A stretch of 64,000 nucleotides of DNA, from positions 17,992-81,991 of the IMG/VR virus record IMGVR_UViG_3300046534_001193. One strand, 5' to 3'. The notes beneath the pieces are model-generated. The model worked only from the letters and a program-made list of their open reading frames with translations, had not been told where the DNA came from and did no database searches. This DNA comes from a virus. Shown here piece after piece: positions 7,145-46,991 of the stretch (position 1 is its first letter; every line of letters starts with the position of its first letter). The position numbers and the translations under genes are program-made.

Positions 7145-7351
7145 ATGAAACCAGTTAGCCTAGCAGAAAAATTTTCAGCGGAATCGCCAGATGACCCACG
7201 CTTCTTACGCCGACAAATTAAATCCTCAAGCTCTTATCCAGAGATTGAAAAATTCGTAGTGCGTCCTGCCAAAGTAGTTATGCTTGAACAGGACGAGTCT
7301 TTGAAGGGCGTGTTTGACGCTGCCTTTACTCTCATGCCTTTTAATGACTGA
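7145..7351 (+). CDS. 68-aa truncated paralog of the major capsid C-terminus
   Basis: 21/44 ungapped identities with capsid LRRYINVSASY...FDDAFTVM; AAGGTG RBS; flanking DNA duplicates capsid end and half terminator. Confidence 0.75.
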   Translation: MKPVSLAEKFSAESPDDPRFLRRQIKSSSSYPEIEKFVVRPAKVVMLEQDESLKGVFDAAFTLMPFND

Positions 7352-7386
7352 CACTTAACAGCGGCTTTTTATTGTCAACAAGTCAA

Positions 7387-7415
7387 TGGACATTAACTTG
7401 TTAAGCGGTTAGTAT
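7387..7415 (+). promoter_or_regulatory. putative sigma70 promoter for neck genes
   Basis: TGGACA-17bp-TAGTAT. Confidence 0.5.
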
Positions 7416-7467
7416 TAGTGAGCTTATGTTCAAACACAGGCCTAACCAATTAACCAGGATAAATAAT

Positions 7468-7782
7468 ATGTCGCGTTCTAAGCCTAATAAAGGGACTACC
7501 CTTAGCCTAGCCAAGGTGGAAAAAGAAGAAGCCGAAGCAGCTGACGCTAGGGCAGTTTTGGAAAAAGAAGAAGGTGAAGCTGCCGCAGCCAGAGCGGCTT
7601 TTGAAAAAGCTAAAGCAGCCAACACAATAAAAACAGTCACTTTATTGCTCGGCTCGCAAATAACTGACCCAGGCACTGGTGTAATTTTAGTAAAAAACAA
7701 AGCAGTAATAGTTCCAGAAATTTCTAAATGGGTTAGAATGCAAGCTGGATTCACACCTCCTTACTTAACTTTTACGGAGTAA
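7468..7782 (+). CDS. small head-associated/packaging accessory protein
   Basis: AGGA RBS before ATG 7468; EKEEAEAADARA repeat; position after capsid. Confidence 0.55.
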   Translation: MSRSKPNKGTTLSLAKVEKEEAEAADARAVLEKEEGEAAAARAAFEKAKAANTIKTVTLLLGSQITDPGTGVILVKNKAVIVPEISKWVRMQAGFTPPYLTFTE

Positions 7783-7788
7783 TTAGAA

Positions 7789-8271
7789 ATGGCCAAATCT
7801 TTTTTAGGGCTAGTGACCGTAGACGAAATTCGCGGATCACTCGGGTTGGACGCAAAAGACATAAGCGATGCCATAATGGCTAGCCAATCACCTGAAAAAG
7901 ATTTGCAAGCTGATCTATTAACATGGGTTTCTACCTATCAGACTATAATTTCTGAAGGGGCCGCCACTACACCGACTACTGCGCAGACTCTGAAATATCT
8001 CAAGTTGCAAAACTATTCCAAATATTTCATTGCTGCCATATTCGCCTCTTCTGGTATGGTCTCAATATTTCAGAGTATGTCTGATGGGAAGAATCAATTT
8101 ACACGATTCTCTAATGGTTCATTGAAAGATCTCCAGCTGGACCTAAAATCAAAGGCTGCATCGGCGAGATCTGAATTAGAGGCCCTAATCGATCCTGATC
8201 AAGTAGCTACTTACACCCAGTTTTCTCGGGTGGTTTCTTCTTACGACCCAGTCACAAACGCAACTACCTAA
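7789..8271 (+). CDS. head-tail adaptor (connector)
   Basis: 160 aa helical protein, VTVDEIRGSLGL start, synteny. Confidence 0.6.
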   Translation: MAKSFLGLVTVDEIRGSLGLDAKDISDAIMASQSPEKDLQADLLTWVSTYQTIISEGAATTPTTAQTLKYLKLQNYSKYFIAAIFASSGMVSIFQSMSDGKNQFTRFSNGSLKDLQLDLKSKAASARSELEALIDPDQVATYTQFSRVVSSYDPVTNATT

Positions 8272-9161
8272 TGGATCTCCGCAAAGTCGCTGCCTTTTTT
8301 GAAACCACAGAATTCGACGCCTACGACGAAAGCGATAACTCGTGGGACGCGTGTTTTCTGTTAGGCAAGGTTATGCCGATAGAGAGCGAAGTGTCTAATT
8401 CAAATCGAAACACTCGCAGAGCTTTGCTTGGTACAGACCCTTTGGCAGTTTTTCCCGCCTCTAATACTCTCAGAGTTTTAACTTCTGGCGACATCTACAT
8501 AGTAGGTGACCTGCGTAAGGACTATCAAAACTCTGCTGCTTACGATCAATCAGGCTTGCTTCACCGCAGCAGTACGGTAGGCACGATAAATCGTCGTGCG
8601 CCTTCGGGCCCCTCAACAGACCCTGGTTGGTTAGTTGAGACTTTGATTAGCACTCACTACATGGATATAGAGCTACGGGCGGTTAAAGAAGCTGGAGAGC
8701 AAGAGCAGCAATTTGACAAGCAGTATCTTATTATTATGCCTTTGCACGCTGCCCCTCAGCAGTGGGACCGTATCAATGTGGGCAGTTACGACCATATTGT
8801 TGAGGCTGGATATGTTGACAGTGGATTTAAGTTAGCCAGAGTAGCCAACCGACTCGACCCTCGTAAAGATTTTACTTACTATAGCCGTGGCGACACAGCG
8901 TCTTTTAATCCTAGCAATGGCGTAGTCACCTCAGGACTAACGCCTTACAACGTTACAGGTTTTGCGCTTGATGCAAAGTCTGGGCAGGTTGCAAACACTG
9001 CAGCCAAAAGCGGCACATTCACGTTGGTAGTCGATAAAACTCACATCGGCGTTGTGCCGACTTCGAAAGATGAAGTAATTTGGGAATCCCAAAGATCTAA
9101 AGTTATTGAAGTCGAAGAAGATTTTATTGACTTTCAATATAAGATACACTGCTCATTATGA
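8271..9161 (+). CDS. head closure / neck protein
   Basis: Coupled TAATG; beta-rich; synteny. Confidence 0.5.
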   Translation: MDLRKVAAFFETTEFDAYDESDNSWDACFLLGKVMPIESEVSNSNRNTRRALLGTDPLAVFPASNTLRVLTSGDIYIVGDLRKDYQNSAAYDQSGLLHRSSTVGTINRRAPSGPSTDPGWLVETLISTHYMDIELRAVKEAGEQEQQFDKQYLIIMPLHAAPQQWDRINVGSYDHIVEAGYVDSGFKLARVANRLDPRKDFTYYSRGDTASFNPSNGVVTSGLTPYNVTGFALDAKSGQVANTAAKSGTFTLVVDKTHIGVVPTSKDEVIWESQRSKVIEVEEDFIDFQYKIHCSL

Positions 9162-9613
9162 GTAAAAATTCAATTGAAGCTGCACGAATTATAGCACTAC
9201 TTGCTCCGTTGCCGTCTAAAATGTTGGCTGCGGTCAGTACGGAAGTCTATGAAAAAGTTTTGAATCTTACTATACAAGATTCGGGGGAAGCTGCTTTTAA
9301 CTGGAGAGCTGGAGTAAATGATGAGAGCGAAATTGGTTTTACTTTTTCTGTCGGTAAAGACCCTGTAGGATTTAAAGGAGAAAAACGCTCTTTGACTGGC
9401 GGAGCCGAAGTAGTGGTTGGGTTTAGGATGCAAGAGTTTTTGTCAAAAATTTCTACCGATAATTTAACTAATGTGCATATTTACAACCCTATTACAGACG
9501 CCGATCACGCTGGAAACGCGCGACTTTTAATATCAAGGGCTGCCGCCACTAACCAAGATTTTATGGACGACATCGCAGAGAAAGCATTAAATGCCAACTT
9601 ACCAAAGCGCTGA
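9158..9613 (+). CDS. tail completion / neck protein (HK97 gp10-like position)
   Basis: DSGEAAFNW motif, HIYNP; synteny. Confidence 0.55.
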   Translation: MSKNSIEAARIIALLAPLPSKMLAAVSTEVYEKVLNLTIQDSGEAAFNWRAGVNDESEIGFTFSVGKDPVGFKGEKRSLTGGAEVVVGFRMQEFLSKISTDNLTNVHIYNPITDADHAGNARLLISRAAATNQDFMDDIAEKALNANLPKR

Positions 9614-10010
9614 GGACACGATAACTTCGCAGTTTGGAAATAATTGGAGTTACACTCCGGTTGCCTACCCCAATGCGCCGGCTATTAACGAAACGGTGTC
9701 TGGTCGACCTGAATTAGGTATTGGCCAAGATCCGTTTATAGCCGTTGAAATTATTTACAGCACTTCCCCAGCTATTGAGGTTGGGGCTAGCCCCTTGAAG
9801 AGAACCTTTGGAAACATCCTAGTAGAATTCTATACTAAAGAAGACACCGGTTCACTTCAAAACAGAATTAACCTTGACCGACTTGCAGCAATGTTTGAAT
9901 ACAAAACTATCGAAGACATCTCTTTTAGAGACATTACTGTAATGCAATCTGGCACCCAAAACGGCTGGTACATTACCCCCGCCATGGTCAGGTTTTACTT
10001 TTACAGGTAA
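9591..10010 (+). CDS. tail terminator protein
   Basis: PVAYPN start, immediately before tail tube. Confidence 0.65.
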   Translation: MPTYQSAEDTITSQFGNNWSYTPVAYPNAPAINETVSGRPELGIGQDPFIAVEIIYSTSPAIEVGASPLKRTFGNILVEFYTKEDTGSLQNRINLDRLAAMFEYKTIEDISFRDITVMQSGTQNGWYITPAMVRFYFYR

Positions 10011-10050
10011 AAATTCTAACTCGCCAAAAATACTAAGTTTTAGGAAAGTA

Positions 10051-10077
10051 TTGAAATACTTTACACCCTGCTATAAT
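10051..10077 (+). promoter_or_regulatory. putative extended -10 promoter for tail tube, overlapped by palindrome aaagtatt-ga-aatacttt
   Basis: TGcTATAAT at 10069-10077. Confidence 0.5.
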
Positions 10078-11367: not shown

Positions 11368-11377
11368 CCTGCACACT

Positions 11378-21961: not shown

Positions 21962-22738
21962 ATGACAGCTCTACCAGCAAAAACAGCATTTACAGCTGAA
22001 AACCTGACTGAGGGTGATTTCAGGGCCGCGATGGATAACCTTCGAGATTACTTGTCTGAGCGAGTGCAAGGCCTTAAATCTAATACGGCATTGTCTGATG
22101 CAGCCGCAACATTAACAGCTGCTCAACTAGTTGGTGGGGAGTTCACTATAACTCCAACAGTAGCGAGGACTCAGACAACAGACACGGCAGTCAATATCAT
22201 AGCAGCGATGGCAGGTAGCGCGGATGGCAGTAGCTTTGAGTTTACAGTTGTTAATCTAGCTGATTTTGCTGTGACTATTGCACTGGGAACCGGTGTAACT
22301 TTAGTTGGGGATATGGCTATTAATATTGGTGCGGCTACTTTTAGAGTACGTAGGCTAACTTCTACAACAGTTAGTGTTACGCGTCTTGAAAGTCAATTTA
22401 CTGCAGCTGATAACACTAAGCTGGATAGTTTAGGTTCCCAAAACGTCAAACTCAATACCAAGCTTATTGATATAGGTGATTGGAACATGAACACAACATA
22501 CGAGTTTGAGGTTACTCACGGACTAACGCTAAATAAAATAAGAGGGATGTCTGTACTAATTAGAAATGACGCTGATACCAACTACACTCTTCTTGCTATT
22601 AACGGGGTTACAGCATGCTACGCAGATGCCACAGAGATTACTCTTAACAGAGTTAATTCAGGAGCGTTTGACACTTCATTCTATGAAAGCCCGCCATCAG
22701 GAAATAGAGGCTGGATAACCATCCAATACGTAGATTAA
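21962..22738 (+). CDS. tail fibre / receptor-binding protein 1
   Basis: N-terminal anchor MTALPAKT...LRDYLSE; FTAADNTKLD coil; beta C-terminus. Confidence 0.7.
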   Translation: MTALPAKTAFTAENLTEGDFRAAMDNLRDYLSERVQGLKSNTALSDAAATLTAAQLVGGEFTITPTVARTQTTDTAVNIIAAMAGSADGSSFEFTVVNLADFAVTIALGTGVTLVGDMAINIGAATFRVRRLTSTTVSVTRLESQFTAADNTKLDSLGSQNVKLNTKLIDIGDWNMNTTYEFEVTHGLTLNKIRGMSVLIRNDADTNYTLLAINGVTACYADATEITLNRVNSGAFDTSFYESPPSGNRGWITIQYVD

Positions 22739-22764: not shown

Positions 22765-23637
22765 ATGACAGCTCTACCAGCAAAAACATCATTTACAGAC
22801 GCAGGCGTAACCGAAGGCACGTTTAAAACCGCGATGAATAACCTTCGAGATTATTTGTCTGAGTCTATAGGGACTTCGGGAGGAGCGATTACGCCGAGTG
22901 TTGTTAGAACCGCATTGGCAGCAGCGACAGACGCTAACGTACTGACCGACTACCAAAGTTCTAAACTAGGATCTCTTACAGGCCGAAATTTACTGATAGG
23001 TAATTTCTTTGTAAATCAAGAAGAGGTATCAGGATCGGTTGTTTTAAGCGCAGGCGATTACGGGCACGATATGTTTAAGGGCGGAGCAAGCGGTTGCTCT
23101 TACACTTTTTCCACGACCAACGGTGTTCCCATGACGACAATATCAGCAGGGTCACTGGTTCAAGTCGTCGAAGCGGTAAACATTGCGGCTGGCGATTACA
23201 TTTTAAGTCACGTAGGCACAGCCCAAGTCCGAATCGACGGCGGTAGCTACGACGATTCTGGTGAGGTTACGGCTACGTTAGACGGTTCAGCAAACGCTAC
23301 TGTTGAGTGGGGCACTGGCACGTTGTCGTTGCCTCAACTAGAGCTAGGCACTGTAGTTACCGCATTCGATAGGCGGAACATCGGTGTGGAGCTGACACTC
23401 TGTAAGCGGTATTTTCAAGACTATTCTGGGGCCTTTACACTTTCAGCGACTTCTAGCGCCGCAAACATTAATAAGCCTATTCTAGAAGTCGAAATGAGAT
23501 CAACGCCTAGCATAACACAGACAACTTCGGGGTCAGGCGGGTCTTGGGTGGTAACGACAAATAAATCTTTAAGGCAGTCGGGCGTCCATTCAGCAGACTC
23601 AACAACAACTGTATTGAAATTAGACGCGAGGTTATAA
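22765..23637 (+). CDS. tail fibre / receptor-binding protein 2
   Basis: Same N-terminal anchor; RNLLIGNF, QLELGTVVTAFDRR..ELTLCKRYF, EMRSTP fibre motifs. Confidence 0.75.
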   Translation: MTALPAKTSFTDAGVTEGTFKTAMNNLRDYLSESIGTSGGAITPSVVRTALAAATDANVLTDYQSSKLGSLTGRNLLIGNFFVNQEEVSGSVVLSAGDYGHDMFKGGASGCSYTFSTTNGVPMTTISAGSLVQVVEAVNIAAGDYILSHVGTAQVRIDGGSYDDSGEVTATLDGSANATVEWGTGTLSLPQLELGTVVTAFDRRNIGVELTLCKRYFQDYSGAFTLSATSSAANINKPILEVEMRSTPSITQTTSGSGGSWVVTTNKSLRQSGVHSADSTTTVLKLDARL

Positions 23638-29955: not shown

Positions 29956-30870
29956 GTGGTATCGAAGGTGGCGAGTGAACCTGTAAATAATTTTTGGGCT
30001 GACGGCTTCTGGGCTACTGGATTTTGGGCCGAAGGTTTTTGGGCAGGCGACGGGCTAGGTACTGATGTTACTGTTGGTCAGATAACTGAGTCTGAGACTT
30101 TATTTGGCTTAGCAGTTATACAAGGCACTACCGCTGTTACTGTTGGTCAGATAACTGAGTCTGAGACTTTATTTGTTTTAACGCCTGTACAAGGAGTAGC
30201 CAGTCTCGCTGTTGGGCAGGTAACTGAGTCTGAGGCTTTATTCGGCCTGACCGTTGCACAAGGTTTAGTCAGTGTTGATGTCGGACAATTAACTGAGTCC
30301 GAATTATTATTTAACTCCGCCGTTGTAACCGGAACTGCTAGTCTCGCAGTTGCACAGCTAACTGAGTCCGAGTTATTATTCGATTCTCAAGTTTTAAGCG
30401 GCTCGGTCAGTCTCAGTGTTGGACAAGTAACTGAGTCCGAGTCCTTATTCAGCTTAGCTGCGCAACTTGTAATTAGTGTTGATGTCGGACAGCTAACCGA
30501 GTCAGAGTCTATATTTGACTCGGCAATTGTGCCAGGCGCAACCAGTGTCACCGTTAGTCGGATAAACGAGTCTGAATTATTATTTGACTCCACTGTAAGC
30601 GGTTTGGTTATTGTCTCTGCTGGACAGCTAATTGAGTCCGAGTCTATATCAGGCTTAGCAGTTATAATAGGAGTCTCTAGCCCTGCTGCCGTACAAATAT
30701 CTGAGTCCGAGTTCATATTTGATTTAGTAGTTATAAAGGACTCGATTGACCCAAATGCCTTTAGGCCTTTCAGAACACTGTCTTTGGGCCTGACTCAAGA
30801 GGTTCTTTTCACTTGCAGCACTTTAGACGCACAATCGGGCAGCTGCAATATACTTAAGCGCTGTAGTTGA
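29956..30870 (+). CDS. repeat protein A: (FWAxG)x4 head plus ten 22-23-aa VxVGQxTESExLF repeats
   Basis: Repeats read directly from the translation; start may be GTG 29968. Confidence 0.8.
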   Translation: MVSKVASEPVNNFWADGFWATGFWAEGFWAGDGLGTDVTVGQITESETLFGLAVIQGTTAVTVGQITESETLFVLTPVQGVASLAVGQVTESEALFGLTVAQGLVSVDVGQLTESELLFNSAVVTGTASLAVAQLTESELLFDSQVLSGSVSLSVGQVTESESLFSLAAQLVISVDVGQLTESESIFDSAIVPGATSVTVSRINESELLFDSTVSGLVIVSAGQLIESESISGLAVIIGVSSPAAVQISESEFIFDLVVIKDSIDPNAFRPFRTLSLGLTQEVLFTCSTLDAQSGSCNILKRCS

Positions 30871-33894: not shown

Positions 33895-34356
33895 ATGAGT
33901 TTAGGCTTCGCCCCTTTAGGCACCTTGCCCCTTGGCGGTCAAGTTGTTGACCCTAGCCCACAATCGGTTGCTGTATACCAGCTAACCGAAAGCGAAGCGC
34001 TATTTAGTTCTTCTGCTGTCCCAGGTGTCACCAGCATAGCGGCATCATTAGCCAGCGAACAAGAAACTTTATTTGACTTGGCAGTAGCTACAGCGATATC
34101 AATTAGCTCAGTCCAAGTAGACGAAAATGAATCTTTATTTGACTTGGCAGTATCTCATGGAGCCTTTAGTGTAGCTACTTCTCAAATAACTGAGTCAGAA
34201 TCCTTATTTGATTTGTCAGTATCTGAGGGTGGCTTCGGTAAAGCTGCCTCACAGATTACCGAAAGTGAGTCATTGCTGGCAGCAACAGCGCGAATATCTT
34301 TCCTAGGAAAAACAGTTTACGCGACTTTAAGTATATCCAGACACATCTCATTTTAA
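33895..34356 (+). CDS. repeat protein B: LGFAPLG head plus five 22-23-aa QxTESExLF repeats
   Basis: Same repeat consensus as 29956-30870. Confidence 0.8.
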   Translation: MSLGFAPLGTLPLGGQVVDPSPQSVAVYQLTESEALFSSSAVPGVTSIAASLASEQETLFDLAVATAISISSVQVDENESLFDLAVSHGAFSVATSQITESESLFDLSVSEGGFGKAASQITESESLLAATARISFLGKTVYATLSISRHISF

Positions 34357-38893: not shown

Positions 38894-39360
38894 CAAGTTA
38901 TCTCGGACGCGTCTATAATTGTATCTTTAATAGTTTTTATGTCGCCTTGTGCGAGCAAATAAGCATTCTTCGGAAACCTGCCACCTTTTGCTCTGGCTAC
39001 AGCAATGTGGAGCCCGTCCCAAATATCCACCCTTCCAGTATCGTAGTGGCAGAACATGACCCAAGAAGGCAAGCCAGCCCTGTGCCACATACGGTGAAAA
39101 GCGGCTTGGTCCTTGGACCAGAGACTAGAGAAGCCGCTACTCAAAGAGTCATACTTCGCAGAACACTTAGCTTCAATAAGGATTGCAAGACCGTCAATCG
39201 CTAGCAGGAAGTCGCCTGGCTGGGCGGGCAGTATATTTCTGGCCGCCCGCGTGTCGGGATATCTGTGGAAAGTCGATTTTCTTTCCGACTCTGTCTCTTT
39301 CAGTGCGTCTTGGATTTTGCCTTCGAACCATTTACCTATGTCGTTGCTTTGATTAGTCAT
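38890..39360 (-). CDS. PD-(D/E)xK Holliday-junction resolvase (RecU/Hjc-like)
   Basis: GKWFE, PGDF, IEAK; probable start MTNQSND at 39360. Confidence 0.8.
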   Translation of the reverse strand: MTNQSNDIGKWFEGKIQDALKETESERKSTFHRYPDTRAARNILPAQPGDFLLAIDGLAILIEAKCSAKYDSLSSGFSSLWSKDQAAFHRMWHRAGLPSWVMFCHYDTGRVDIWDGLHIAVARAKGGRFPKNAYLLAQGDIKTIKDTIIDASEITC

Positions 39361-39592
39361 CGGCCTTCCACACAAGTTTTTCCATAAATTTAACAGCGAA
39401 ATAGGCGTAGCGTGTAGGGTTAACCGCCCCTGTAAAAAGCAATACTACCGTGGTGTCGGTTATTTCTACAATCTTACAGAGCTTTGGGCAAGTGTTAATC
39501 GTTATCGGCTCTATCTGTACCAACCAATAATCACCTAACCCTACATCTGCAAATTCGGGCGGGTACTTGTGTATTCTGGTTTTCTTTGTCAT
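39353..39592 (-). CDS. small beta protein, paralog of 39638-39868
   Basis: Alignable with neighbour (G.xW.xQ...CxIVExT...VL.F.G...F.E.L); shared leader. Confidence 0.65.
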   Translation of the reverse strand: MTKKTRIHKYPPEFADVGLGDYWLVQIEPITINTCPKLCKIVEITDTTVVLLFTGAVNPTRYAYFAVKFMEKLVWKADD

Positions 39593-39637: not shown

Positions 39638-39868
39638 CTACATCCTGAGCCTTTCAATAAATCTAAGTGATACAAAAGTGTGCTTAGTATTGTTATTCGA
39701 ACCTGCAAAAAACAAGACTAAAGTGTTGCCAGTTTTTTCTACAATTAAACACTTCTTTGGGGGAGTCTCACTTGTTATCGGTGCTACTGGAATTTCCTGA
39801 ATTATCCAAACCTGTCCAACTTCAATTTCAGATAGCTCTGGCGATTGATCGGGTATTCTAGTTGACAT
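39638..39868 (-). CDS. small beta protein, paralog of 39353-39592
   Basis: As above; GGAG RBS. Confidence 0.65.
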   Translation of the reverse strand: MSTRIPDQSPELSEIEVGQVWIIQEIPVAPITSETPPKKCLIVEKTGNTLVLFFAGSNNNTKHTFVSLRFIERLRM

Positions 39869-39893: not shown

Positions 39894-42800
39894 TTAAGCC
39901 GCTTTCTTAGCTTCCCATTTAGCTAAGGCATCCACAATTGCCTGATCGATGTCTTCGCGACTCGGTTCCACGCCTATCTCGATTTGATCGTTCCAGTTCT
40001 TACCTAGCGATACATCGGCTGTCATCGGTGCCACATGGTTAGGCGGCGTCAAGGTCATAATCGCTACCAGCCTATCGATGTACTCAGGTATCTTAGAGAT
40101 TGGCACCGAAGCAGTTATCTCGTCGTAGACTGGGCCTAGCAACGTTGCACCGGTATCTGCCCAAAGATGTTTCTTCCAGCATTGCGTCAAAACTACCTTT
40201 AGGATATCTGCTGCAGTACCTTGAATTATCGAGTTGACGCCTTGACGCTCCATTCTTCTGCGCTCGGAATTCTTGTCAGAAAATATGGTTGGACCAATAT
40301 GTCTGCGATTACCGTAAGCTGTTTGGGTGTAGCCATTAGCTTTAGCAAAGGCAATGACTTCTTGCTGCCAAGGCTGTATTCGAGGGTAGGTGCTGTAGGC
40401 TGCGTTCATCATAGCCTCAGCCTCAGTCAAAGGTATTATCAACTGTCGGCTCAAGGTTGGAGCTTCCCCTAAGTAGGTCATTAGAAAGTTGGTACGCTTA
40501 GCTGGGCGTTTTCTAACTTTCAAAAACTTGTCATGGTCAGCATGTTCTTTATCTTTGTAGGCTTCCATGTAGTCTACGTAAGAGACACCTGCTATTCCTG
40601 AGGCTGTCATTGAGTGGACGTCGCGTCGATTGTCGCCTACGTAGCACGATATCAGGTTAGCATCTCCACTTTCAGACGCGGTTATTACCAATTCTTGCTG
40701 AGAGAAATCGATCGATACAATCATCTCGTCATCGGCGTAAGCCTTGTAAACTGATCGCATTATGCCTTCTTCTTGGTGCTTGCTCACGGCCAATATGTTC
40801 GGCGCAGTAGCCGATGGCCTGCGAGTAACCGTACCGCAGTTCTTTATCTGAGGATGAATCCTGCCGTCTGTCGGGTGGGCCCACGCAGGGTAAGGCGTGT
40901 GGTAAAAGCTAATCCTAGTGGTAGCCTCCTTCACCAGCAGCACAGTTTCTAATATCTGCTTGCGCCAAAAGTCCGATGGGTCATCCAACATGTCTTCAGC
41001 CAAAGCTGTTTGTATTGCTAAAGCGTCGGTAGATGGATTTCCGCTCAGCTTATTTATGTCTCTAAACCCACCTTTTTCAGGGAAAGTTTGCAGTCGAACC
41101 GGTAGGCCTAACTTGCAATACATCAATTGCTGCATCTGTTTGTACGATCCAACACTGAGTTCGTCGCCGATGTGGACTACCTTGCCCTCGCTCACCAGCT
41201 GGCCAGAACAAAACTTAGCCAAAGCATCATACTCGACACCTTCTCTGCTCTTCAATTGCTCTACAGCCTCAGCTAGCAAAGTCGTAAATTTGTCTTGGTC
41301 TTTGGTCAGCGCAGGCCTAGCGTCGTGCTCGTCTTCAGCACTAAACTGGCAAACCTCAGTCAACCATTGTGTTATGGCCTTCCTGGCTACACTGGTAAAC
41401 GGCGTACTGAAGCCTAAGTTTTTGACGACTGACTCAAACTTTTTCAAGGTCGGTACGAATTCCACAGGCTCACAAACTTCTTCGTAGGGCACGTACTGGG
41501 ATGCGTCTAAACATTGCTTAGCAAAATTGGCAGCAGCAGAACCCATTGCCTCGGTAACTGCTTTTGAGGCTGCTTCTGAATCTAAGGCAACACCTTCTTT
41601 GTCTAATTTCTTTCGGGCAGCAGCTTTAGCTTTTGCTTTTACAACGTCCAGCTCAGCAGCCAACAAAGGTTTGGCTCTTTCTTTATCGACTTTACTGCAG
41701 TGCACCTCTAAGATCGTTCTTAGCCGCGCCATGCCGTCTGATATTGTAGCAACGTCTTTCTGTCGCAAAGTTTCTAAGACGTCCCAGTCCATCTCACATC
41801 CCACTAGATAAGCGTCTACCAGCGCATGCTGAGTGTAGACTTCGTTCTCCATGAAGAAAGCATGGCTACCTTCAATCTGCATAATGATATTGCGCAGTAC
41901 CCAAATGTGAGCCGTGCAAGTTGCGTCGTCACAGCCATACTTGAATACTTCGTCCAGGCTCAGCTGATCCATTGTTCGCATTTCACCAGTCACAGGGTCG
42001 GTCACAGTATCTTTGTAGCTGGCTTGGTCGTGGCCTAGCAGTCGTTTTGACGAGCTTTTAAGGCCTGCCAGTTCTTCTTCTTCAACGTAAGACGACATTA
42101 TTGCAGTATCGATCACAGGGCCTAGCCAAAAACCTAAATTCTGCTTGGTGACTGCGATCTCAAAGAAAGCATTTTGTACCGACAAGGTTGAGACTTCTTC
42201 TGCTATCCGAAGTAACTTTCCAATGACTTCTTTATCTACGTTGCCTTCCGAGTTGTGTTGCACAGGAAGGTACATAGTCTGCTGCAAGTTCTCTCCGAAA
42301 GTGAATGAAGCACCGGCTATCAATGCTTCTTTGACGTCCACATAGTCTTCGCCCTTAGGGCCATGCAACATTGCGTCTTCTGACGGATAAGTCTCGTAGT
42401 CAAAAGAGACTATCGGGCTTTTAGCACACTCCGATCGGAACTCAGTGTACAAGTCTTCGTCGACATCTTCGGCTGTTATTGCGTATGAAACAGGTAAGTG
42501 TCGCTCGACATCTTCGTGATCAATTAAATCTGAGCAGCCCATTGCGTCAAAAATTCTTTGCACAGTAGCAACGTCAGGCAGGCGCTTGAACCAATGGATA
42601 TTGGTTAGCTTCTTACCTTTAGGCTTCCAACAAAGCTCAGGGTGAAGGATTGCCAGCAAGTAGGACTTTCTCCAATCATGCCTATGATCCGACAGCATTT
42701 GCAATACTTTGTTGGGCTCGTCGGCCAACACTTCTTCGATGACAGAGTAGTCGCTATTCTTGACGCACTCTTCAAGTTCCAGCAATCCGTCGTAGCCGTA

Positions 42801-43412
42801 GGATTCTACTAAGGCTGTCCACTTGGCAGGTCCGAAACCTTTGACGCCGGCATACTTGTCGGATGTATCTCCAACCATCGATTTGCTAAGGCTGGTAAAA
42901 GCGTAAGGTACATCGTGCCAAGTGCCTTCGGTTTGCAGTTCCATTTTCAAGTAAACTTGCACGTCTTCATTAGCTAGTTGCAACAAGTCAGCGTCAACAG
43001 TGTAAATCATGTGCTTACCTGGCATTGTCTGACAAAAATAAGCCAGCAGGTCGTCAGCCTCCACGCCGTCAACTTTCGCTTGGGTACATCCGATCGCGCC
43101 CCAGAAGCGCTTCATCATGTCCATCATAAGAACATTTTGCTCACGTTCTTCAGGGTCTCGGTCTAGGCGGGCTTTTGTTTGCTTGTAATCAGGTAGCAAG
43201 GCGGTACGGTAGTCAGTGCCGCCGTCATGCGCTATCAAGATATCGATAGGCGCGTGGTATTCTAAAATTGGCAGCATGTATCGAGTCATAAACTGATTGA
43301 AGCCGTAGGCCGCCGTGTTTATGTCGTTATCCAGTGCTGTGTTAATAGCTTCTGGGTCGGTGCCGATGTGGTAGCAGTGGTACATTACAGCTTTTGCGTC
43401 GAGTAATATCAT
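39894..43412 (-). CDS. polA: family A DNA polymerase with fused 5'-3' and 3'-5' exonuclease domains
   Basis: EADD, GDTSD..GVKGFG (5'-3' exo); FDYET, YGCDD (3'-5' exo); DFSQQEL, AKRTNF..TY, IQGTAADILK, VYDEI. Confidence 0.93.
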   Translation of the reverse strand: MILLDAKAVMYHCYHIGTDPEAINTALDNDINTAAYGFNQFMTRYMLPILEYHAPIDILIAHDGGTDYRTALLPDYKQTKARLDRDPEEREQNVLMMDMMKRFWGAIGCTQAKVDGVEADDLLAYFCQTMPGKHMIYTVDADLLQLANEDVQVYLKMELQTEGTWHDVPYAFTSLSKSMVGDTSDKYAGVKGFGPAKWTALVESYGYDGLLELEECVKNSDYSVIEEVLADEPNKVLQMLSDHRHDWRKSYLLAILHPELCWKPKGKKLTNIHWFKRLPDVATVQRIFDAMGCSDLIDHEDVERHLPVSYAITAEDVDEDLYTEFRSECAKSPIVSFDYETYPSEDAMLHGPKGEDYVDVKEALIAGASFTFGENLQQTMYLPVQHNSEGNVDKEVIGKLLRIAEEVSTLSVQNAFFEIAVTKQNLGFWLGPVIDTAIMSSYVEEEELAGLKSSSKRLLGHDQASYKDTVTDPVTGEMRTMDQLSLDEVFKYGCDDATCTAHIWVLRNIIMQIEGSHAFFMENEVYTQHALVDAYLVGCEMDWDVLETLRQKDVATISDGMARLRTILEVHCSKVDKERAKPLLAAELDVVKAKAKAAARKKLDKEGVALDSEAASKAVTEAMGSAAANFAKQCLDASQYVPYEEVCEPVEFVPTLKKFESVVKNLGFSTPFTSVARKAITQWLTEVCQFSAEDEHDARPALTKDQDKFTTLLAEAVEQLKSREGVEYDALAKFCSGQLVSEGKVVHIGDELSVGSYKQMQQLMYCKLGLPVRLQTFPEKGGFRDINKLSGNPSTDALAIQTALAEDMLDDPSDFWRKQILETVLLVKEATTRISFYHTPYPAWAHPTDGRIHPQIKNCGTVTRRPSATAPNILAVSKHQEEGIMRSVYKAYADDEMIVSIDFSQQELVITASESGDANLISCYVGDNRRDVHSMTASGIAGVSYVDYMEAYKDKEHADHDKFLKVRKRPAKRTNFLMTYLGEAPTLSRQLIIPLTEAEAMMNAAYSTYPRIQPWQQEVIAFAKANGYTQTAYGNRRHIGPTIFSDKNSERRRMERQGVNSIIQGTAADILKVVLTQCWKKHLWADTGATLLGPVYDEITASVPISKIPEYIDRLVAIMTLTPPNHVAPMTADVSLGKNWNDQIEIGVEPSREDIDQAIVDALAKWEAKKAA

Positions 43413-43446
43413 AATAGTTGTGCCTCGTGTGTTTGTTTGGTGAATC

Positions 43447-44766
43447 TTATCTTCTTAGGAGTAATGCACTCTCTCGTGCTCTGCTTACGCCTACGTAAAG
43501 CAATTGATTGCGCTCTTTCATTCTCGGGTTTTTGAATACGTCATCCACGTCTAAGAATACGTTGCCGTAACTAGAGCCTTGAGAACGGTGGATAGTCATT
43601 GCGTGTGGTGACTGCAGGTTTGCGAAGCTATCTTTAAAATTCCAAAAATCTGACCACTTGCGACCTTCTACCTTGGCTGCAGCTCCAAGCTTTTCGAGCA
43701 TAGCTTTGTAATCCCGCGCACTGTCTTCGTGTAAGATGTAGGCACAAGTTGACACGCCCCGTTCGGAAAGCAGGAGAACTTCCCAGACTGTAAACTGAAT
43801 AGTCATACCAGAGTACAAGGGGTGAAGCGCTTTGGTTATTGATAAGACTTTCAGCTCTTCGTCAGTGTGGGCTACAATCTCGGGCTTAGGGTCGGTTATG
43901 TCGCCCACTAAAGCAGATCGGGTTAGAACCCTCTCACCTTGGATAAAAGGAGTCTTAGTCTCCCCGACTAGCAGGCGCCTAAGACTTTTATTCAGAGAGT
44001 CGACTCTCTTGTTAGTCCATGCCAAGCATCTAAATGAGTCAGGGTCATCGCGGTATTCATCTGATAAGAAGTTCTCTTTAACACAGTTGTACCAATCGAC
44101 TGCGCCTAAGACGTAGATACCTTGATCTAATTTGGAGTTTATTTTGTTTACAAACTTGGTCGTAGATTTTCCTTCAATTATGTCATTGCGCAACGACTCG
44201 GTTAATTCTAGAATAGGGTTTCCAGTAACCTGCCTGCGGTTCTCAGTCAGGTGAAACATCTGGTCAGCCTGCTCAAAAGCCTGCGACTTTACCTCTTTTA
44301 CCGGAGGTATCTGATATTTGTCACCCATTACGATAACTTTAACCCTGTCCAATATGGCAGCCTCTCGAAGGTGTGTAACGACATTCTTATTTAGCATAGA
44401 GCCCTCGTCGACTACAACTAAATCCATGTCACCAAAACCTCCTTGCGACATCTTCTTGGCCATTTTAATTTCGCCGTTGCTATCCAATACCATACCCAAC
44501 AGAGAATAGATTGTTCGGCACTCAACATTGATGCCGTAGTCCTCAGCCATAGTGTTTAAGACTTTTACAGCTTTGTGAGTAGGCGCGGTTAAACAGACCT
44601 TAATGTTCGGGTGAGATTTTTGCAGATTTTTTATGACTCGCTGAATTGTGTAAGTCTTGCCTACACCAGCCCAGCCAGTCAGAACGAAGAAAAGCTCACC
44701 AACAGCCTTGTAGAATTTTATCATAGCGTCAGCAACTTCTTGCTGATCGGGTTTTAAGTCTGACAT
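43447..44766 (-). CDS. Dda/RecD-like SF1B helicase
   Basis: GWAGVGKT, APTHKA, VVDEGSM, GDKYQIPPV, TIHRSQGSSY, YVGVSRA. Confidence 0.92.
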   Translation of the reverse strand: MSDLKPDQQEVADAMIKFYKAVGELFFVLTGWAGVGKTYTIQRVIKNLQKSHPNIKVCLTAPTHKAVKVLNTMAEDYGINVECRTIYSLLGMVLDSNGEIKMAKKMSQGGFGDMDLVVVDEGSMLNKNVVTHLREAAILDRVKVIVMGDKYQIPPVKEVKSQAFEQADQMFHLTENRRQVTGNPILELTESLRNDIIEGKSTTKFVNKINSKLDQGIYVLGAVDWYNCVKENFLSDEYRDDPDSFRCLAWTNKRVDSLNKSLRRLLVGETKTPFIQGERVLTRSALVGDITDPKPEIVAHTDEELKVLSITKALHPLYSGMTIQFTVWEVLLLSERGVSTCAYILHEDSARDYKAMLEKLGAAAKVEGRKWSDFWNFKDSFANLQSPHAMTIHRSQGSSYGNVFLDVDDVFKNPRMKERNQLLYVGVSRARESALLLRR

Positions 44767-44791
44767 CTTAGTTACTCTTAGGGTTTTAATT

Positions 44792-44820
44792 GAACTGGGC
44801 GAATCATGTTCGCCCAGTTC
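44792..44820. other. 12-bp perfect hairpin between SSB-like and helicase genes
   Basis: gaactgggcgaa-tcatg-ttcgcccagttc; no U-tract on the minus strand. Confidence 0.75.
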
Positions 44821-44846
44821 CCTACTTATTGTGCTGTGTCTTTATC

Positions 44847-45653
44847 TTAGTCTTTAACTAGTTTAAAGTCCCAAGGATAGAAAGTGTCACCACTGCCTTT
44901 TATGGTTACTTTCTTGCCGACACAAACTTCGGTTGTGACTTCGCGAGGGTTAATACCTGCGTAAGCCAGCCGACCCATGTAGCCAGTTAGACGAGCAATA
45001 GATGAAGGTGATATAGACATAATGACAATGTGCCCTTCTAGCTCGCCAGAAACAACTTCCGCCGTCAGATCTAGATACTTCTTCTCGATCACAAGTTTGT
45101 CCTCAGCTTTCCACTCAGCAAGGATGTCAGCCAGCGGAGTTCCATCTGTAGTCGTCTCTTTATCTAAGCTAAAGACGCAGGTAGCATCGCGCTCTTTGCT
45201 GTCAAGGTATGCCCAGCGTGGCTTGCTTTCCATCAGGTTAGCTTGGAAAGACTTGCCTTCGAGTTCTACGCCTTCCGAAGTTTCAAACACGCCTTTGTCT
45301 AACTTAATGTTAGTAAAGCTGTGGTAGCCGACTTCCAAACCGCCGAAGCCTTCGGATGCCATTTTATCTACAAAACCACCTGAGACACCGGTTGATTTGG
45401 CTACGCCTTTACTGGCTGTCGAAGTGTTAGCTAAGGCAGTTTTAGGGGCATCAACTTCTTTAGCCTCCGGCTCAACCTTCTCAGCTGCCACCTCTTTAAC
45501 TTCAGGTGCAACAGTTTTTTCCGCAACGGTTTCCGCAACAGCAGTTTCTTCAACCACTTTTTCTTCGTGCACAACAGCTTCTTGCTCGACTTCTTGATCG
45601 GCACCTTGCCGAATTTTTGAAGCCGCCGAATTTTTAGGTGTTTTAAGTCCCAT
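44847..45653 (-). CDS. putative single-stranded DNA-binding / annealing protein
   Basis: AGGAG RBS at MGLKTPKN; acidic low-complexity N-terminus, OB-like beta core ending FYPWDF; replication cluster. Confidence 0.55.
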   Translation of the reverse strand: MGLKTPKNSAASKIRQGADQEVEQEAVVHEEKVVEETAVAETVAEKTVAPEVKEVAAEKVEPEAKEVDAPKTALANTSTASKGVAKSTGVSGGFVDKMASEGFGGLEVGYHSFTNIKLDKGVFETSEGVELEGKSFQANLMESKPRWAYLDSKERDATCVFSLDKETTTDGTPLADILAEWKAEDKLVIEKKYLDLTAEVVSGELEGHIVIMSISPSSIARLTGYMGRLAYAGINPREVTTEVCVGKKVTIKGSGDTFYPWDFKLVKD

Positions 45654-45724
45654 GGTATTTCTCCTAGTAGTAATTGTAAAAGTAAGTTTTAACAGTAATT
45701 GCCCCTTAATCAAGGGGTGACGCA

Positions 45725-45763
45725 AGTGTAAACAAGTTAAATATGTAATGCAACTTGTTTACA
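45725..45763 (-). promoter_or_regulatory. sigma70 promoter TTGCAT-17-TACACT inside a 12-bp inverted repeat
   Basis: tgtaaacaagtt (45727-38) / aacttgtttaca (45752-63). Confidence 0.7.
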
Positions 45764-45771
45764 AATTCTTT

Positions 45772-46668
45772 TTAATCTGCTGGGTACAATTCGTTCAAGT
45801 TGTCAATGACAGCTCCAAGCATGTAGTTTGTTTTCATATCAATGTAGTCCTGATCTAACCCGATATCCTGCAAAGCCCTGCCAAAATACATTATCCCAGT
45901 CAAGACTGTCGAGTAGCAAATTTGCTGTCGACGCTGAATATCTTTAGGTATAAAGTCGTTGAAAAAAGCCATAGTTTCTTTGACCCACTGAGAACCGGTA
46001 TCGAGGCTGCAAAGGAGTAGGGAGCTGGACAAATGCGTTAGTAAATAGCCCTTGTTGATAACGTCGCTGTAATTTTCAGTTGCGTCTAAGCGCTGTCTCC
46101 CAGACTTAGTAATTTCAAGTGTGACCATACGCTGCCGCAATGCAGGTCGATCTGGTATCTGCTCAGACATTACGCATACAGGCGACGATATCTTAATCTT
46201 CTGAATTGGTTCGTTACGAATTGTGCCTGTATATAAGTCTTGCTGATTCCAAGCCGCTTTAAAAAGACCTGCGAACTCATCAAATATATCATCTGACATG
46301 TCAGATCTATCAAATTGTTCTAGTAATCTAGCTGTAGAGGTCGAAGTGGATAAATATTGAGCTGCCGCCCAAGGCGTAGCCCCCTGCAATGACATGGCTG
46401 GTTGTTCCACCATGGAAAAAATTCCGTGCTTTAAATAAAACCTTCCGTGTAAGCAGGAAAACAAGTTGCTCATTGAAGACTTGCCGCTCTCACGACCACC
46501 CCAAAGATTTAGCAAAGGAAACGGGTACTCGCAATTAGTCAGATGAACTTTTATCATGCAGGCCGAAAACCAGCCAATCATAGTTGAAGTCACTAAGGGG
46601 TCGTTGCACCCGATTAGGCTGTCTATGAGTCGCATTAATTCTGCTTTATTAGGATTTTTAATTCCCAT
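45772..46668 (-). CDS. stand-alone paralog of the primase-helicase ATPase domain, Walker B EE->EQ
   Basis: Colinear with C-terminal part of 49257-52067 (NDPLVTST, FPLLNLWG, FKAAWN, LRQRM, IGLDQDYID); N-terminus and leader copied from SSB gene. Confidence 0.88.
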   Translation of the reverse strand: MGIKNPNKAELMRLIDSLIGCNDPLVTSTMIGWFSACMIKVHLTNCEYPFPLLNLWGGRESGKSSMSNLFSCLHGRFYLKHGIFSMVEQPAMSLQGATPWAAAQYLSTSTSTARLLEQFDRSDMSDDIFDEFAGLFKAAWNQQDLYTGTIRNEPIQKIKISSPVCVMSEQIPDRPALRQRMVTLEITKSGRQRLDATENYSDVINKGYLLTHLSSSLLLCSLDTGSQWVKETMAFFNDFIPKDIQRRQQICYSTVLTGIMYFGRALQDIGLDQDYIDMKTNYMLGAVIDNLNELYPAD

Positions 46669-46722
46669 GGTATTTCTCCTGGTAGTTTTAAAAGTAATTA
46701 CCTTCTATGAAGGGGTGACACA

Positions 46723-46761
46723 ATTCTAATTTAGCTGGCTTCACAATGCAACTTGTTTACA
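46723..46761 (-). promoter_or_regulatory. sigma70 promoter TTGCAT-17-TAGAAT, copy of SSB promoter
   Basis: aatgcaacttgtttacaaattctttttaat shared with 45747-45776. Confidence 0.7.
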
Positions 46762-46769
46762 AATTCTTT

Positions 46770-46991
46770 TTAATTTGATTTGGCCCAGTTCTTACAAGCT
46801 CCTGCCACCGCAAGGTTTATCAGTGTTCTCCTCGGGAAAAGCGGCCAATAAATATACGGGTAGCCTAGTTCTTCTCCCTCATAAAAATGCCGCAATGGGT
46901 CTGCGCTTCTTAGGTTTAAAAATCCTGAGTGTGAGAAATGCATTAATTCGGTCAACCCTATTGAGTGTGGCTTGTAAATTGTTTTGTTCAC
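46770..46991 (-). CDS. 73-aa hypothetical protein with terminase Walker-A-like N-terminus
   Basis: GGGAG RBS, GTG start; KTIYKPHSIGLTEL vs TerL KAVKKCSQVGLTEL. Confidence 0.5.
   Translation of the reverse strand: MNKTIYKPHSIGLTELMHFSHSGFLNLRSADPLRHFYEGEELGYPYIYWPLFPRRTLINLAVAGACKNWAKSN

Follow-up and report, generated by a model that had tools for sequence, protein, structure and literature searches.

Small genes that resemble pieces of a phage's own core proteins raise the question of where they came from and whether they belong together. In the window analysed here (the whole stretch of 64,000 nucleotides, part of an 81,991-bp genome), three such genes had been proposed to be fragments of the capsid, the primase-helicase ATPase and the terminase, and to form one linked system. 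The phage is marine or from ice, and natural variants of it were found in ice metagenomes. Two of the three likenesses, to the capsid tail and to the helicase ATPase, were borne out, whereas that to the terminase was not. A three-member system is not supported, because the terminase match is due to chance, the element thought to link the genes is distributed genome-wide, and the two real genes differ in their histories. The reading favored here, which we consider to have about an even chance of being correct, is that of two independent lineage-specific accessory genes that arose by partial self-duplication of core genes, with the helicase copy most likely being a non-hydrolysing AAA+ subunit (features in Table 1).

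Table 1. Features of the locus, numbered from the first nucleotide of the window.
Feature	Position	Strand	Basis
Gene for the major capsid protein (396 aa), from which the mini-gene derives	5818..7008	+	phrog_3922 major head protein, E 2.5e-47
Terminator hairpin of the capsid gene (GC stem of 6 bp, TTCG loop, T run)	7036..7059	+	direct sequence reading
Dyad copy ahead of the mini-gene, 1 mismatch to ACTTGTNNACAAGT	7087..7100	+	genome-wide dyad search
Capsid-tail mini-gene, 68 aa: 15 new N-terminal residues and diverged capsid residues 343-395	7145..7351	+	self-comparison
Second copy of the capsid 3′ end (14 identical nt) with terminator right arm and T run, left arm absent	7338..7380	+	sequence reading
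Neighbor gene (268 aa, ATG at 45653) from which promoter, leader and first codons of the paralog were copied	44847..45653	-	leader alignment
Next gene's own promoter region and leader, the original (copy B), with 30-bp repeat 45747-45776	45654..45790	-	leader alignment
Helicase copy, 298-aa chimeric stand-alone AAA+ module, Walker B E118Q	45772..46668	-	self-comparison, family alignment, AF2 model
Copied promoter region and leader before the paralog (copy A), with dyad and 30-bp repeat 46745-46774	46669..46790	-	leader alignment
73-aa ORF, not a member, possibly not a gene	46770..46991	-	pairwise comparison, shuffles, tblastn
Primase-helicase gene, 936 aa, parent; source segment ~49641-50501 (residues 523-809)	49257..52067	-	phrog_16345 primase, E 1.5e-80

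The Claimed Third Member and the Shared Element

When the 83 proteins of the window were compared with one another, the mini-gene product matched the capsid protein at E 1e-10 (2e-12 pairwise) and the helicase copy matched the primase-helicase at E 1e-107, but the terminase likeness of the 73-aa ORF did not hold. Its resemblance to the terminase Walker A motif came to 7/15 identical residues with a pairwise E of 0.079, the terminase tied for second place among 82 window proteins, and the terminase gene (461-2209) was not among the best 12 tblastn matches on this region. A terminase large subunit fragment was rejected for this ORF as a chance match, since its Smith-Waterman score of 35 was equalled by 92 of 1000 shuffles. 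The ORF has no Pfam or PHROG match, the GpA_ATPase family included, and no counterpart in the relatives L007 or L009. A six-frame self-search of the whole genome, with 1256 stop-to-stop frames and a minimum length of 30 aa, revealed no further core-gene fragments.

The upstream element that was said to be common to these genes does exist: the same 15 nt recur without change at 7087-7101, 45752-45766 and 46750-46764, and a 30-nt exact repeat precedes both the helicase paralog and the next gene. It is not private to them, however, but a genome-wide dyad, ACTTGTNNACAAGT, which with at most two mismatches occurs at 19 sites in the 81,991-bp genome, compared with a mean of 4.25 (maximum 10) in 100 shuffles. 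The phyletic spread of the two real genes differs as well (eight orthologues of the mini-gene, one of the helicase copy), and the helicase cassette is lost alone.

These four observations also count against the idea that the fragments are decoys, which would occupy capsid, helicase or terminase sensors (CapRel, Lit, Avs-type) without triggering them and act as one self-fragment system. It has in its favor that both real fragments copy protein classes reportedly recognised by bacterial sensors, that both genes are lineage-restricted and fast-evolving, and that the helicase copy is variably present between near-identical genomes; lineage restriction, fast evolution and variable presence are the usual traits of conflict genes. 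The targets named in an Avs survey include the major capsid protein and helicase/RecA-fold ATPases (10.64898/2026.01.04.697583). The capsid piece, however, comprises just 53 residues out of a larger fold, and the fold predicted for the piece itself was uncertain in a single run; a mimic would probably set off, rather than block, a sensor that fires on binding a fold, and a literature search found no described case. We therefore regard the decoys as highly improbable, and the reading as two separate accessory genes is followed below.

The Capsid-Tail Mini-Gene

The parental capsid protein also matches Pfam Phage_capsid_4 just short of the cut-off (E 1.2e-5), and its residues 340-392 form the most conserved stretch among three capsids compared at 67-68% identity. 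The terminator hairpin behind the gene is kept in the relative L008 and does not appear in the list from a consensus scan. The mini-gene that follows is a tandem copy of the last ~160 nt of the capsid gene with a remnant of the terminator, a new 15-residue N-terminus and its own ribosome binding site. The predicted origin from the capsid C-terminus was confirmed by an ungapped alignment to capsid residues 343-395, with 23/53 residues identical (43%). A complete HK97-fold major capsid protein was rejected for this gene, which has no Pfam or PHROG match and contains only the last 53 capsid residues. A promoter search returned only weak sigma-70-like matches (9/12).

Orthologues of both copies had been called for in relatives. 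Those of the mini-gene, from eight close relatives, are 66-68 aa long and 79-87% identical, but at more distant loci (10/10 IMG/VR loci with capsids 62-69% identical) the interval that follows the capsid gene, up to the next gene, contains no second capsid-tail copy.

The conserved residues of the mini-gene are those that it has in common with the capsid, and this is why the mini-protein most likely keeps a contact of the capsid C-terminus; it would retain at least some contact that this part of the capsid makes.

Origin of the Helicase Copy

The parental primase-helicase shows weak AEP primase Pfam matches at residues 55-145. Its ATPase was correctly recognised in the second gene, which is identical to parent residues 523-809 at 161/294 positions (55%) and lies ~2.6 kb from the parent gene. 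The copy begins ~10 residues ahead of the AAA+ module and stops ~127 residues before the equivalent of the parent C-terminus; it has neither the primase domain nor the middle region nor the C-terminal domain of the parent.

The helicase copy is a chimera, in which the promoter region, leader, ribosome binding site and first ~8 codons of the neighbor gene are fused in frame to the AAA+ module. The copied leader and the original (copy A and copy B) are identical at 118/155 aligned positions, through the ribosome binding site and these first codons. The neighbor gene has homologues at the corresponding position of L007 and L009; the label "SSB" that had been given to it was not upheld, as it has no Pfam or PHROG match and hits only unnamed viral clusters in Atlas.

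In nature, some genomes carry the helicase copy and others do not, as a cassette with a 30-bp direct repeat on either side; the variants from ice metagenomes lack precisely this unit. The exact repeats flank the gene (cassette 45747-46774), and the natural joint falls at the repeat: a 444-nt X2 contig joins 45744 to 46743 and skips 998 nt, with a shorter side of 168 nt and three differences in total. A similar joint in X5 skips 1001 nt and has 37 nt on one side. The paralog itself is borne by X2, X3 and X4 contigs; in X2, the depth of the deletion variants reaches up to 5.4 versus 2.2-4.2 over the paralog. At least one of the two copies is dispensable in nature, and these depths suggest that the loss of the helicase cassette costs little.

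A tree placed the paralogs (that of the window and its orthologue P0002) as sister to the window's own primase-helicase with support 100/99, to the exclusion of L007, P0007 and P0008. The copy thus branched off from the primase-helicase of this very phage, later than the split from the relatives without it. Evolution on the paralog stem was ~8 times faster than on that of the parent (0.62 vs. 0.074). The copy occurs only in a single sub-lineage, where one orthologue is known; it is absent in both relatives in which the replication region was compared (L007, L009), and each of 31/31 cultured relatives has a single matching place. The capsid mini-gene and the helicase copy arose separately.

Selection or Decay

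The open frames and ribosome binding sites of the first two genes, as originally predicted, are present, the sites being Shine-Dalgarno-like, with AAGGTG 7 nt before the ATG of the mini-gene and AGGAG 8 nt before that of the helicase copy. This is relevant to the alternative that both genes are decaying relics, i.e., functionless leftovers of illegitimate recombination that are open by chance and youth and are being lost. Frame openness was assessed with a neutral simulation of 1000 runs that was substitution-only, without indels. The open frame of the 68-aa ORF proves little, because at 20% divergence 46% of the runs stay open. By contrast, the 298-codon helicase frame is open across 26% protein divergence, where only 0.7% of the neutral runs stay stop-free, and the length differences between the two helicase paralogs are all in frame.

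For the mini-gene, dN/dS against L008 was 0.33 (binomial p 0.033, from 8 synonymous changes and 10 that were non-synonymous), and the columns identical to the capsid are preferentially conserved (5 variable and 18 invariant, compared with 16 and 14 for the remaining columns; Fisher p 0.026), both tests being marginal with p about 0.03. Its length is kept in 8/9 sequences, and the new N-terminus varies at 3/15 columns. Decay would nevertheless be in keeping with several observations. In L008/P0160, a 41-nt deletion at the 3′ end of the mini-gene (region 7338-7380) removes the last codons, natural deletions also hit the helicase cassette, and the terminator copy after the mini-gene is half-deleted. 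In the helicase paralogs, 11/37 family-invariant positions are changed in one or both, different ones in each lineage (2 only in the window, 4 only in P0002), and the substitutions between the two are not concentrated in variable columns (15-26% in family-conserved columns vs. 27% in variable ones, Mann-Whitney p 0.21); such near-equal substitution also fits a simple relaxation of constraint. On balance, the two fragments behave more like selected accessory genes than like fresh debris, and relics appear to be a rather unlikely explanation. Both copies underwent rapid divergence after duplication, followed by moderate constraint.

Motifs, Fold and Proposed Role of the Helicase Copy

The Walker A motif of the helicase copy is kept (G57...G62 K63 S64, GxxxxGK[ST]) and aligned to invariant family columns. 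The family consensus for Walker B is hh[DE]E[FY]N, the second acidic residue being invariant in 13 family rows. In the copy, E117 is kept and the invariant catalytic glutamate is replaced by Q118, giving LLEQF where the parent has LIEEF, a sequence that departs from hhhh[DE]E; the EQ motif was thus read correctly at the outset. The Q118 codon was confirmed by an independent contig (X4 record 18, 46040-46399, 0 differences). The sole orthologue P0002 retains LIEEF and the full catalytic set, and the E-to-Q change and the non-hydrolysing state are therefore not a trait of the clade, as only one of the two known copies has the change. The invariant columns S168-E169-Q170, R180 and R247 are also kept; from their position in the strands and helices of the structural model, together with the general AAA+ topology, they are candidates for sensor 1, the arginine finger and sensor 2, respectively.

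The AF2 model of the copy (pLDDT 89.6, pTM 0.90) predicts a complete AAA+ module. The best Foldseek match was the SCCmec Cch helicase 5dgk (E 5e-6, TMq 0.60), followed by MCM, NrS-1, SaPI5 primase-helicase, SV40 LTag and mpox E5; in total, 51 PDB chains, mostly MCM, matched at E <= 0.001, in agreement with an AAA+ core and lid fold. In a sequence search against PDB chains, none was detectably related.

Since K63 of the P-loop, the putative sensor-1 residues SEQ, R180 and R247 persist and the Walker B glutamate is lost, the helicase copy is most likely an ATP-binding, non-hydrolysing subunit on primase-helicase-type rings. It would bind ATP, dock onto such AAA+ rings and modulate or poison them, be it the ring of the phage itself or that of a co-infecting relative. 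Its anatomy would fit the dominant-negative subunit that had been put forward as an alternative to a decoy. In MCM-type helicases, the region N-terminal to the AAA+ module usually drives ring formation; as this region is absent from the copy, co-assembly is not assured. The role would be conditional rather than essential, because natural variants exist without the gene.

A different possibility is a helicase-only protein that would aid replication or packaging in the phage itself, a counterpart of T7 gp4B or AAV Rep52/40 that became fixed as a separate gene. The copy does lie within the replication module under a copied replication-region promoter and keeps its P-loop together with the candidate sensor and arginine residues, and P0002 has the full catalytic set. 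The catalytic glutamate, however, is missing from the copy in the window, as are the domains flanking the AAA+ module; the gene is absent in L007, L009 and the 31 cultured relatives, and near-identical natural variants do without it. Such a role is very unlikely. Returning to an accessory, non-hydrolysing subunit, a broader version would hold that the lineage repeatedly converts pieces of its own core proteins into separately expressed, fast-evolving conflict mimics: an EQ-trap AAA+ subunit that would poison the primase-helicase of co-infecting relatives or blind a helicase sensor, and a capsid-tail peptide that would disturb a capsid sensor or the capsid assembly of a competitor. In that case, dominant-negative or decoy genes derived from the phage itself would constitute a recurring class of phage accessory genes. 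We consider this generalisation decidedly unlikely.

To our knowledge, phage gene birth by partial duplication has rarely been documented in such detail. What can be seen of the helicase copy includes its donor segments and chimeric junction, the bounding repeats, the burst of change after duplication, an orthologue and natural genomes with and without the cassette. A natural Walker B E-to-Q form of a replicative-helicase motor beside the intact enzyme provides a ready-made test of dead subunits in AAA+ rings, and the copy is a candidate weapon in contests among related phages. Were one of the two products a conflict mimic, new accessory functions could be sought simply through their homology to core genes of the same phage.

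Comparison with Known Systems

T7 gp4B and AAV Rep52/40, like the helicase copy, are shorter proteins with the replicative helicase motor that exist beside a full-length enzyme. They are products of the same gene as gp4A and Rep78/68, respectively (by an internal start or promoter), with identical sequence and catalytic activity, whereas the copy is a separate chimeric gene, carries the E-to-Q change in this phage and is dispensable in natural variants. A same-gene isoform of this type was rejected on account of the separate gene and the 55% identity. Inactive AAA+ paralogs in or on active rings, e.g., the clamp-loader delta-prime, share with the copy a duplicated AAA+ module in which the fold and some nucleotide-site residues are kept and the catalytic residue is lost. 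These are ancient, essential and fixed subunits; the copy is young, restricted to one sub-lineage with one orthologue and variably present, and its co-assembly is putative. With SCCmec Cch and the MCM-like helicases, the copy has in common the fold and the order of Walker A, Walker B, putative sensor 1, candidate arginine finger and lid, but it has no detectable sequence relation to them, no N-terminal ring-forming domain and no Walker B glutamate.

The mini-gene resembles the morons in being a small extra unit past the capsid terminator that is missing in relatives. Morons carry their own promoter and terminator and are foreign DNA inserted between genes that are adjacent in relatives; the content of the mini-gene, in contrast, is the end of the adjacent gene, its promoter is putative, and its own terminator has lost the left arm. 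In T4-type phages, promoter-bearing repeats (PeSL cassettes) reportedly shuffle accessory genes (PMC2839356, PMC4122927). These cassettes, like the helicase cassette, place a variable gene between repeated regulatory sequences with insertion or deletion at the repeats; they belong to another phage group and have another motif, and the cargo here was copied from a core gene of the phage itself and joined to the first codons of the neighbor gene.

Fragments of core genes in the phage genome

The original prediction held that three small genes, resembling pieces of the phage's own capsid protein, primase-helicase and, more weakly, terminase, are a candidate decoy or dominant-negative system, the first two with a shared upstream element. 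Two self-comparisons were made, an all-against-all BLASTP of the 83 window proteins and a six-frame search of the whole genome, in which 1256 frames of at least 30 aa were compared with those of at least 100 aa. Both recovered the two main fragments, and neither revealed a further fragment of a core gene. The 68-aa product of the capsid mini-gene matches capsid residues 343–395 without gaps (23/53 identical, E 1e-10), and the 298-aa helicase copy, hereafter the paralog, matches residues 523–809 of the primase-helicase (161/294 identical, E 1e-107). The proposed terminase fragment, a 73-aa ORF, did not hold up: its match has an E of 0.079, and the Smith-Waterman score was equalled in 92 of 1000 shuffles.

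The upstream element does exist, but it is one instance of a genome-wide dyad, ACTTGTNNACAAGT, which with at most two mismatches occurs at 19 sites in the genome versus 4.25 in shuffles. Examples lie at window positions 7087, 24087, 38885, 45753, 46751, 54260, 60366 and 61010, and at the sites read its position is intergenic. The dyad marks many intergenic regions rather than the mini-gene and the paralog in particular, and is probably either an operator bound by a phage regulator or an element of one class of phage promoters. We infer that the upstream stretches are promoter regions, and name them so on that basis only, because a scan for consensus promoters gave weak matches only and missed the evident capsid terminator. 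The earlier observation is therefore partly confirmed, in two of the three fragments and a non-specific shared motif; a single three-part system is unsupported.

Genome and relatives

The record, rated complete by CheckV (81,991 bp, IMG/VR), comes from a tailed phage with a structural and a replication arm; the window covers its bases 17992–81991. Even the nearest cultured phages are only distantly related (capsid identity 33–35%, helicase module 23–29%), in a set of 31 Vibrio and Pseudomonas phage records of 78–88 kb, e.g., SHOU24, PMBT3 and Lana. No relevant match came from DNA searches of the phage collection, whether for near or for distant similarity. Near-identical DNA is contained in sequencing runs labelled as ice metagenome, and in run X2, 43 of 111 aligned pieces are at least 99% alike; a TARA scaffold (locus L008) is a close relative.

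Features of the window discussed in the text
Feature	Position	Strand	Remark
gpA-type terminase	461-2209	+	structural arm
Major head (capsid) protein	5818-7008	+	structural arm
Hairpin terminator, strong	7036-7059	+	after capsid stop
Capsid mini-gene	7145-7351	+	68 aa
Family-A DNA polymerase	39894-43412	-	replication arm
SF1 helicase	43447-44766	-	replication arm
Neighbour gene	44847-45653	-	268 aa
30-bp exact repeat	45747-45776		before neighbour; contains dyad
Helicase copy (paralog)	45772-46668	-	298 aa
30-bp exact repeat	46745-46774		before paralog; contains dyad
73-aa ORF	46770-46991	-	
SNF2 helicase	47007-48548	-	replication arm
DNA methylase	48548-49270	-	replication arm
AEP-type primase-helicase	49257-52067	-	replication arm

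Several other features of this genome and its relatives were observed. On contigs from runs X2, X3 and X4, position 48544 is followed directly by 49254, so that 709 nt are skipped, and 9 nt at the joint fit either side; these joints in three runs indicate near-identical natural variants without the N6/N4 DNA methylase. At the methylase position, the relatives' locus L007 has an unrelated 246-aa ORF, and in locus L009 the primase-helicase directly adjoins the SNF2 helicase. The P-loop of relatives' primase-helicases is interrupted by an intein-like insert, which the window's gene is without; in the homologue P0007 the insert (residues ~575–865) starts with a Cys directly after WGNAG and ends just before SGKS, and L007 (6687–7099) has ~137 extra residues at this point of the P-loop. 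Beside the polymerase, the adjacent small genes 39353–39592 and 39638–39868 (79 and 76 aa; 40% identical over 73 residues, E 9e-18) are a tandem duplication of a small gene. The neighbouring proteins 21962–22738 and 22765–23637 have their first 35 residues in common (69% identical), and a 304-aa repeat protein (29956–30870) has repeats common to a 153-aa protein 3 kb off (33895–34356), at 40–50% identity in several registers.

Origin of the helicase copy

Upstream of both the paralog and the neighbour gene lies a copy of one unit, made up in order of the 30-bp repeat, a leader with a short hairpin, an AGGAG RBS, an ATG start codon and some 8 similar codons; the two copies are identical at 118 of 155 aligned positions. 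The N-termini read MGIKNPNK in the paralog and MGLKTPKN in the neighbour. As its RBS and the duplicated unit indicate, the neighbour begins with the ATG at 45653 and not with the TTG at 45725 of the ORF list, which lies inside the leader. The label "SSB" earlier attached to this neighbour found no support in Pfam, PHROGs or Atlas, its Atlas matches being unnamed viral clusters. From residue 10 on, the paralog is primase-helicase module; together with the neighbour-like 5′ end this makes the gene a chimera, in which a duplicated 5′ end of the neighbour runs on in frame into an internal segment of the primase-helicase gene.

In a tree of 17 module sequences, the paralog and its sole orthologue P0002 (293 aa, identical to P0156, 73–75% identical to the window paralog) form the sister group of the window's own primase-helicase (support 100/99), with L007, P0007 and the further homologue P0008 outside. 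The contigs that encode P0002 and P0156 measure 2.6 and 10.9 kb. The paralog is absent from L007 and L009, two of two readable replication regions, where the SNF2 helicase directly adjoins the neighbour's homologue; their primase-helicases are 65% and 58% identical to the window's, respectively, L009 coming from an 81-kb contig. There is one matching place apiece in 31 of the 31 cultured relatives. The tree position, the paralog-free loci and these single places put the duplication within this sub-lineage. A protein search with the paralog among sequences of 163–522 aa found nothing besides P0001 and P0002, so that the 81,282-bp contig of P0006 may be without the paralog, with the caveat that P0001 is recorded on two contigs. 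No relatives' loci were found in viral_contigs with the paralog, alignment A2 or the divergent homologue P0074 as query.

The adjoining 73-aa ORF had no family match in Pfam or PHROG, low recognition and no match in the Atlas, and no counterpart in L007 or L009. It was considered as a remnant of another paralog copy and rejected as such, only its last few bases overlapping the duplicated promoter stretch. In one X3 contig, 90 nt inside it (46854–46945) are skipped or replaced, which indicates that the ORF is not stable among relatives.

Fold and motifs of the helicase copy

The AF2 model of the paralog is confident (pLDDT 89.6). Among its structural matches the SCCmec Cch helicase ranks first and many MCM chains come next, with NrS-1, the SaPI5 primase-helicase, SV40 large T and mpox E5 lower in rank. 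By sequence, no PDB chain was detectable for the paralog, and alignments A3 and A4 as queries gave nothing useful. Compared with 13 family rows, the window paralog retains the P-loop residues G62 and K63, the SEQ motif where the fourth strand ends, and also R180 and R247. The Walker B "EQ" of the original prediction is present as LLEQF in this genome, where all 13 family rows have an acidic pair, but the orthologue P0002 keeps LIEEF and is altered at other invariant positions (G75S, T98N, R114C, W140F). An independent contig of run X4 covers the Q118 codon with zero differences, and the E-to-Q change is therefore not an assembly error. The parent keeps 37/37 near-invariant family columns. Among the paralogs 11 of these are altered, of which 5 concern both copies, 2 the window's alone and 4 P0002 alone.

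A 72,015-bp contig encodes P0074, a very divergent protein of this ATPase family that has the size of a stand-alone module (296 aa), reads LEGF in place of Walker B and lies on a very long tree branch. It ends at a domain boundary matching that of the window paralog, and may represent a similar case that arose in parallel in another phage. Five other short matches, P0016, P0017, P0021, P0061 and P0065, were rejected: all extend to the family C-terminus, P0017 lacks an opening methionine and the start of P0021 falls inside the module. All five are therefore read as N-terminally cut full-length genes.

Selection on the helicase copy and its natural loss

The stem leading to the paralogs carries 0.62 changes per site versus 0.074 for the parent, and the two paralogs differ by 0.35. 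Their differences affect 15% of the most conserved column class versus 26–27% elsewhere (p 0.21), a near-even spread over conserved and variable columns which indicates that the old constraints are largely gone. Simple decay of both copies, above all of the 68-aa ORF, is a serious rival explanation, and this spread also fits it. The reading frame is intact in both paralogs despite a neutral expectation of 0.7% open frames at 26% divergence (substitution-only simulation, 1000 runs), which argues that something was selected, but not the ancestral enzyme.

Logan contigs from four runs were aligned to 42000–53000. A 444-nt contig of X2 joins 45744 to 46743, with sides of 276 and 168 nt and 3 differences in total, and the joint takes out exactly one repeat copy and the paralog (998 nt). 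Run X5 has a similar, weaker joint (1001 nt skipped, 37-nt side), and the paralog is present on contigs of X2, X3 and X4. On both sides of the deletion the sequence is near-identical to the window, while the paralog is old enough to be 26% off its orthologue; the deletion is therefore read as a secondary loss through recombination between the repeats. Such natural loss of the cassette argues against an essential role; the role of the helicase copy is conditional.

The capsid mini-gene

Downstream of the capsid terminator follow the dyad, an AAGGTG RBS and the mini-gene, and 3′ of the latter stand a repeat of the capsid's last 14 nt, the right arm of the terminator and its T run, the left arm being missing. 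By this arrangement, the mini-gene is a tandem duplication of the 3′ end of the capsid gene. Its last few codons are read one base out of register with the capsid copy, which places the stop 7 nt earlier and inside the shared 14 nt. Eight further sequences of the mini-protein were found (79–87% identity), seven of 68 aa and one of 66 aa; the latter, P0160, corresponds to L008, the only relative found in a metagenome scan, where a 41-nt deletion took the last codons and the terminator remnant. No second copy lies downstream of the capsid in ten of ten IMG/VR loci with capsids 62–69% identical, which include the contigs of L005, L006 and L009. No match of the 68-aa protein to longer proteins was found, nor was a capsid lineage seen that is closer to the fragment than the phage's own (29–46% to the ten IMG/VR capsids).

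In the relatives' capsids, conservation is highest over the C-terminal 53 residues, and the mini-gene is altered at 30 of them; as with the helicase copy, a burst of change followed the duplication. For later constraint the evidence is modest: over 59 codons compared with L008, 8 synonymous and 10 non-synonymous changes give a dN/dS of 0.33 (binomial p 0.033), and among the eight full-length sequences (P0160 left out) the capsid-identical columns are 5 variable to 18 invariant versus 16 to 14 for other columns (Fisher p 0.026). The new N-terminal 15 residues have 3 variable columns. By neutral simulation, an open frame of this length is no evidence of constraint in itself. The predicted complex of the capsid (alignment A4) and the 68-aa protein (alignment A5) scored 0.00 in two runs, with an uncertain partner fold, and counts neither for nor against a contact; the AF2 capsid model from a 3-row alignment has a pLDDT of 31.8.

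Interpretation

Most likely, two separate gene births by partial duplication took place in the same sub-lineage, and both genes went through fast early divergence and then partial constraint. In AAA+ rings, the arginine finger and sensor-2 extend into the site of the adjoining subunit. For the helicase copy we favour the role of a non-hydrolysing AAA+ subunit that would dock on primase-helicase rings: docking is suggested by the complete AAA+ module, the nucleotide-binding residues and the candidate arginine finger and sensor-2, which are kept, and the lack of hydrolysis by the catalytic glutamate, which is dropped in this genome, as are all other domains. The P0002 version is perhaps weakly active. 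The target ring would be either the phage's own, giving modulation, or that of a co-infecting relative, giving poisoning. The capsid-like residues kept by the mini-protein suggest that it still makes some capsid-tail contact. A decoy role, in which either fragment would occupy a bacterial sensor, is conceivable but less likely, and nothing in these data points specifically to it.

Comparison with known systems

A limited literature search found no account of phage genes that derive, as diverged pieces, from the phage's own capsid or helicase and serve as decoys or poisons; the accessible part of PMC9712102 has no relevance to capsid fragments.

Helicase-only isoforms such as T7 gp4B and AAV Rep52/40 are defined by a shared gene and an active enzyme. 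The helicase copy may resemble them functionally, but has neither of these features. The clamp-loader delta-prime is an inactive AAA+ paralog, and by analogy the helicase copy may also be likened to this type, although it is young, variable and dispensable. The mini-gene is positioned like a moron, but its content is self-derived. Bracketed by and lost at repeated regulatory DNA, the helicase cassette resembles the PeSL cassettes of T4-type phages, as far as these are covered in the accessible parts of PMC2839356 and PMC4122927. The case varies on known kinds: the birth of a chimeric gene, an AAA+ paralog that is probably dead, and an accessory cassette bounded by repeats.
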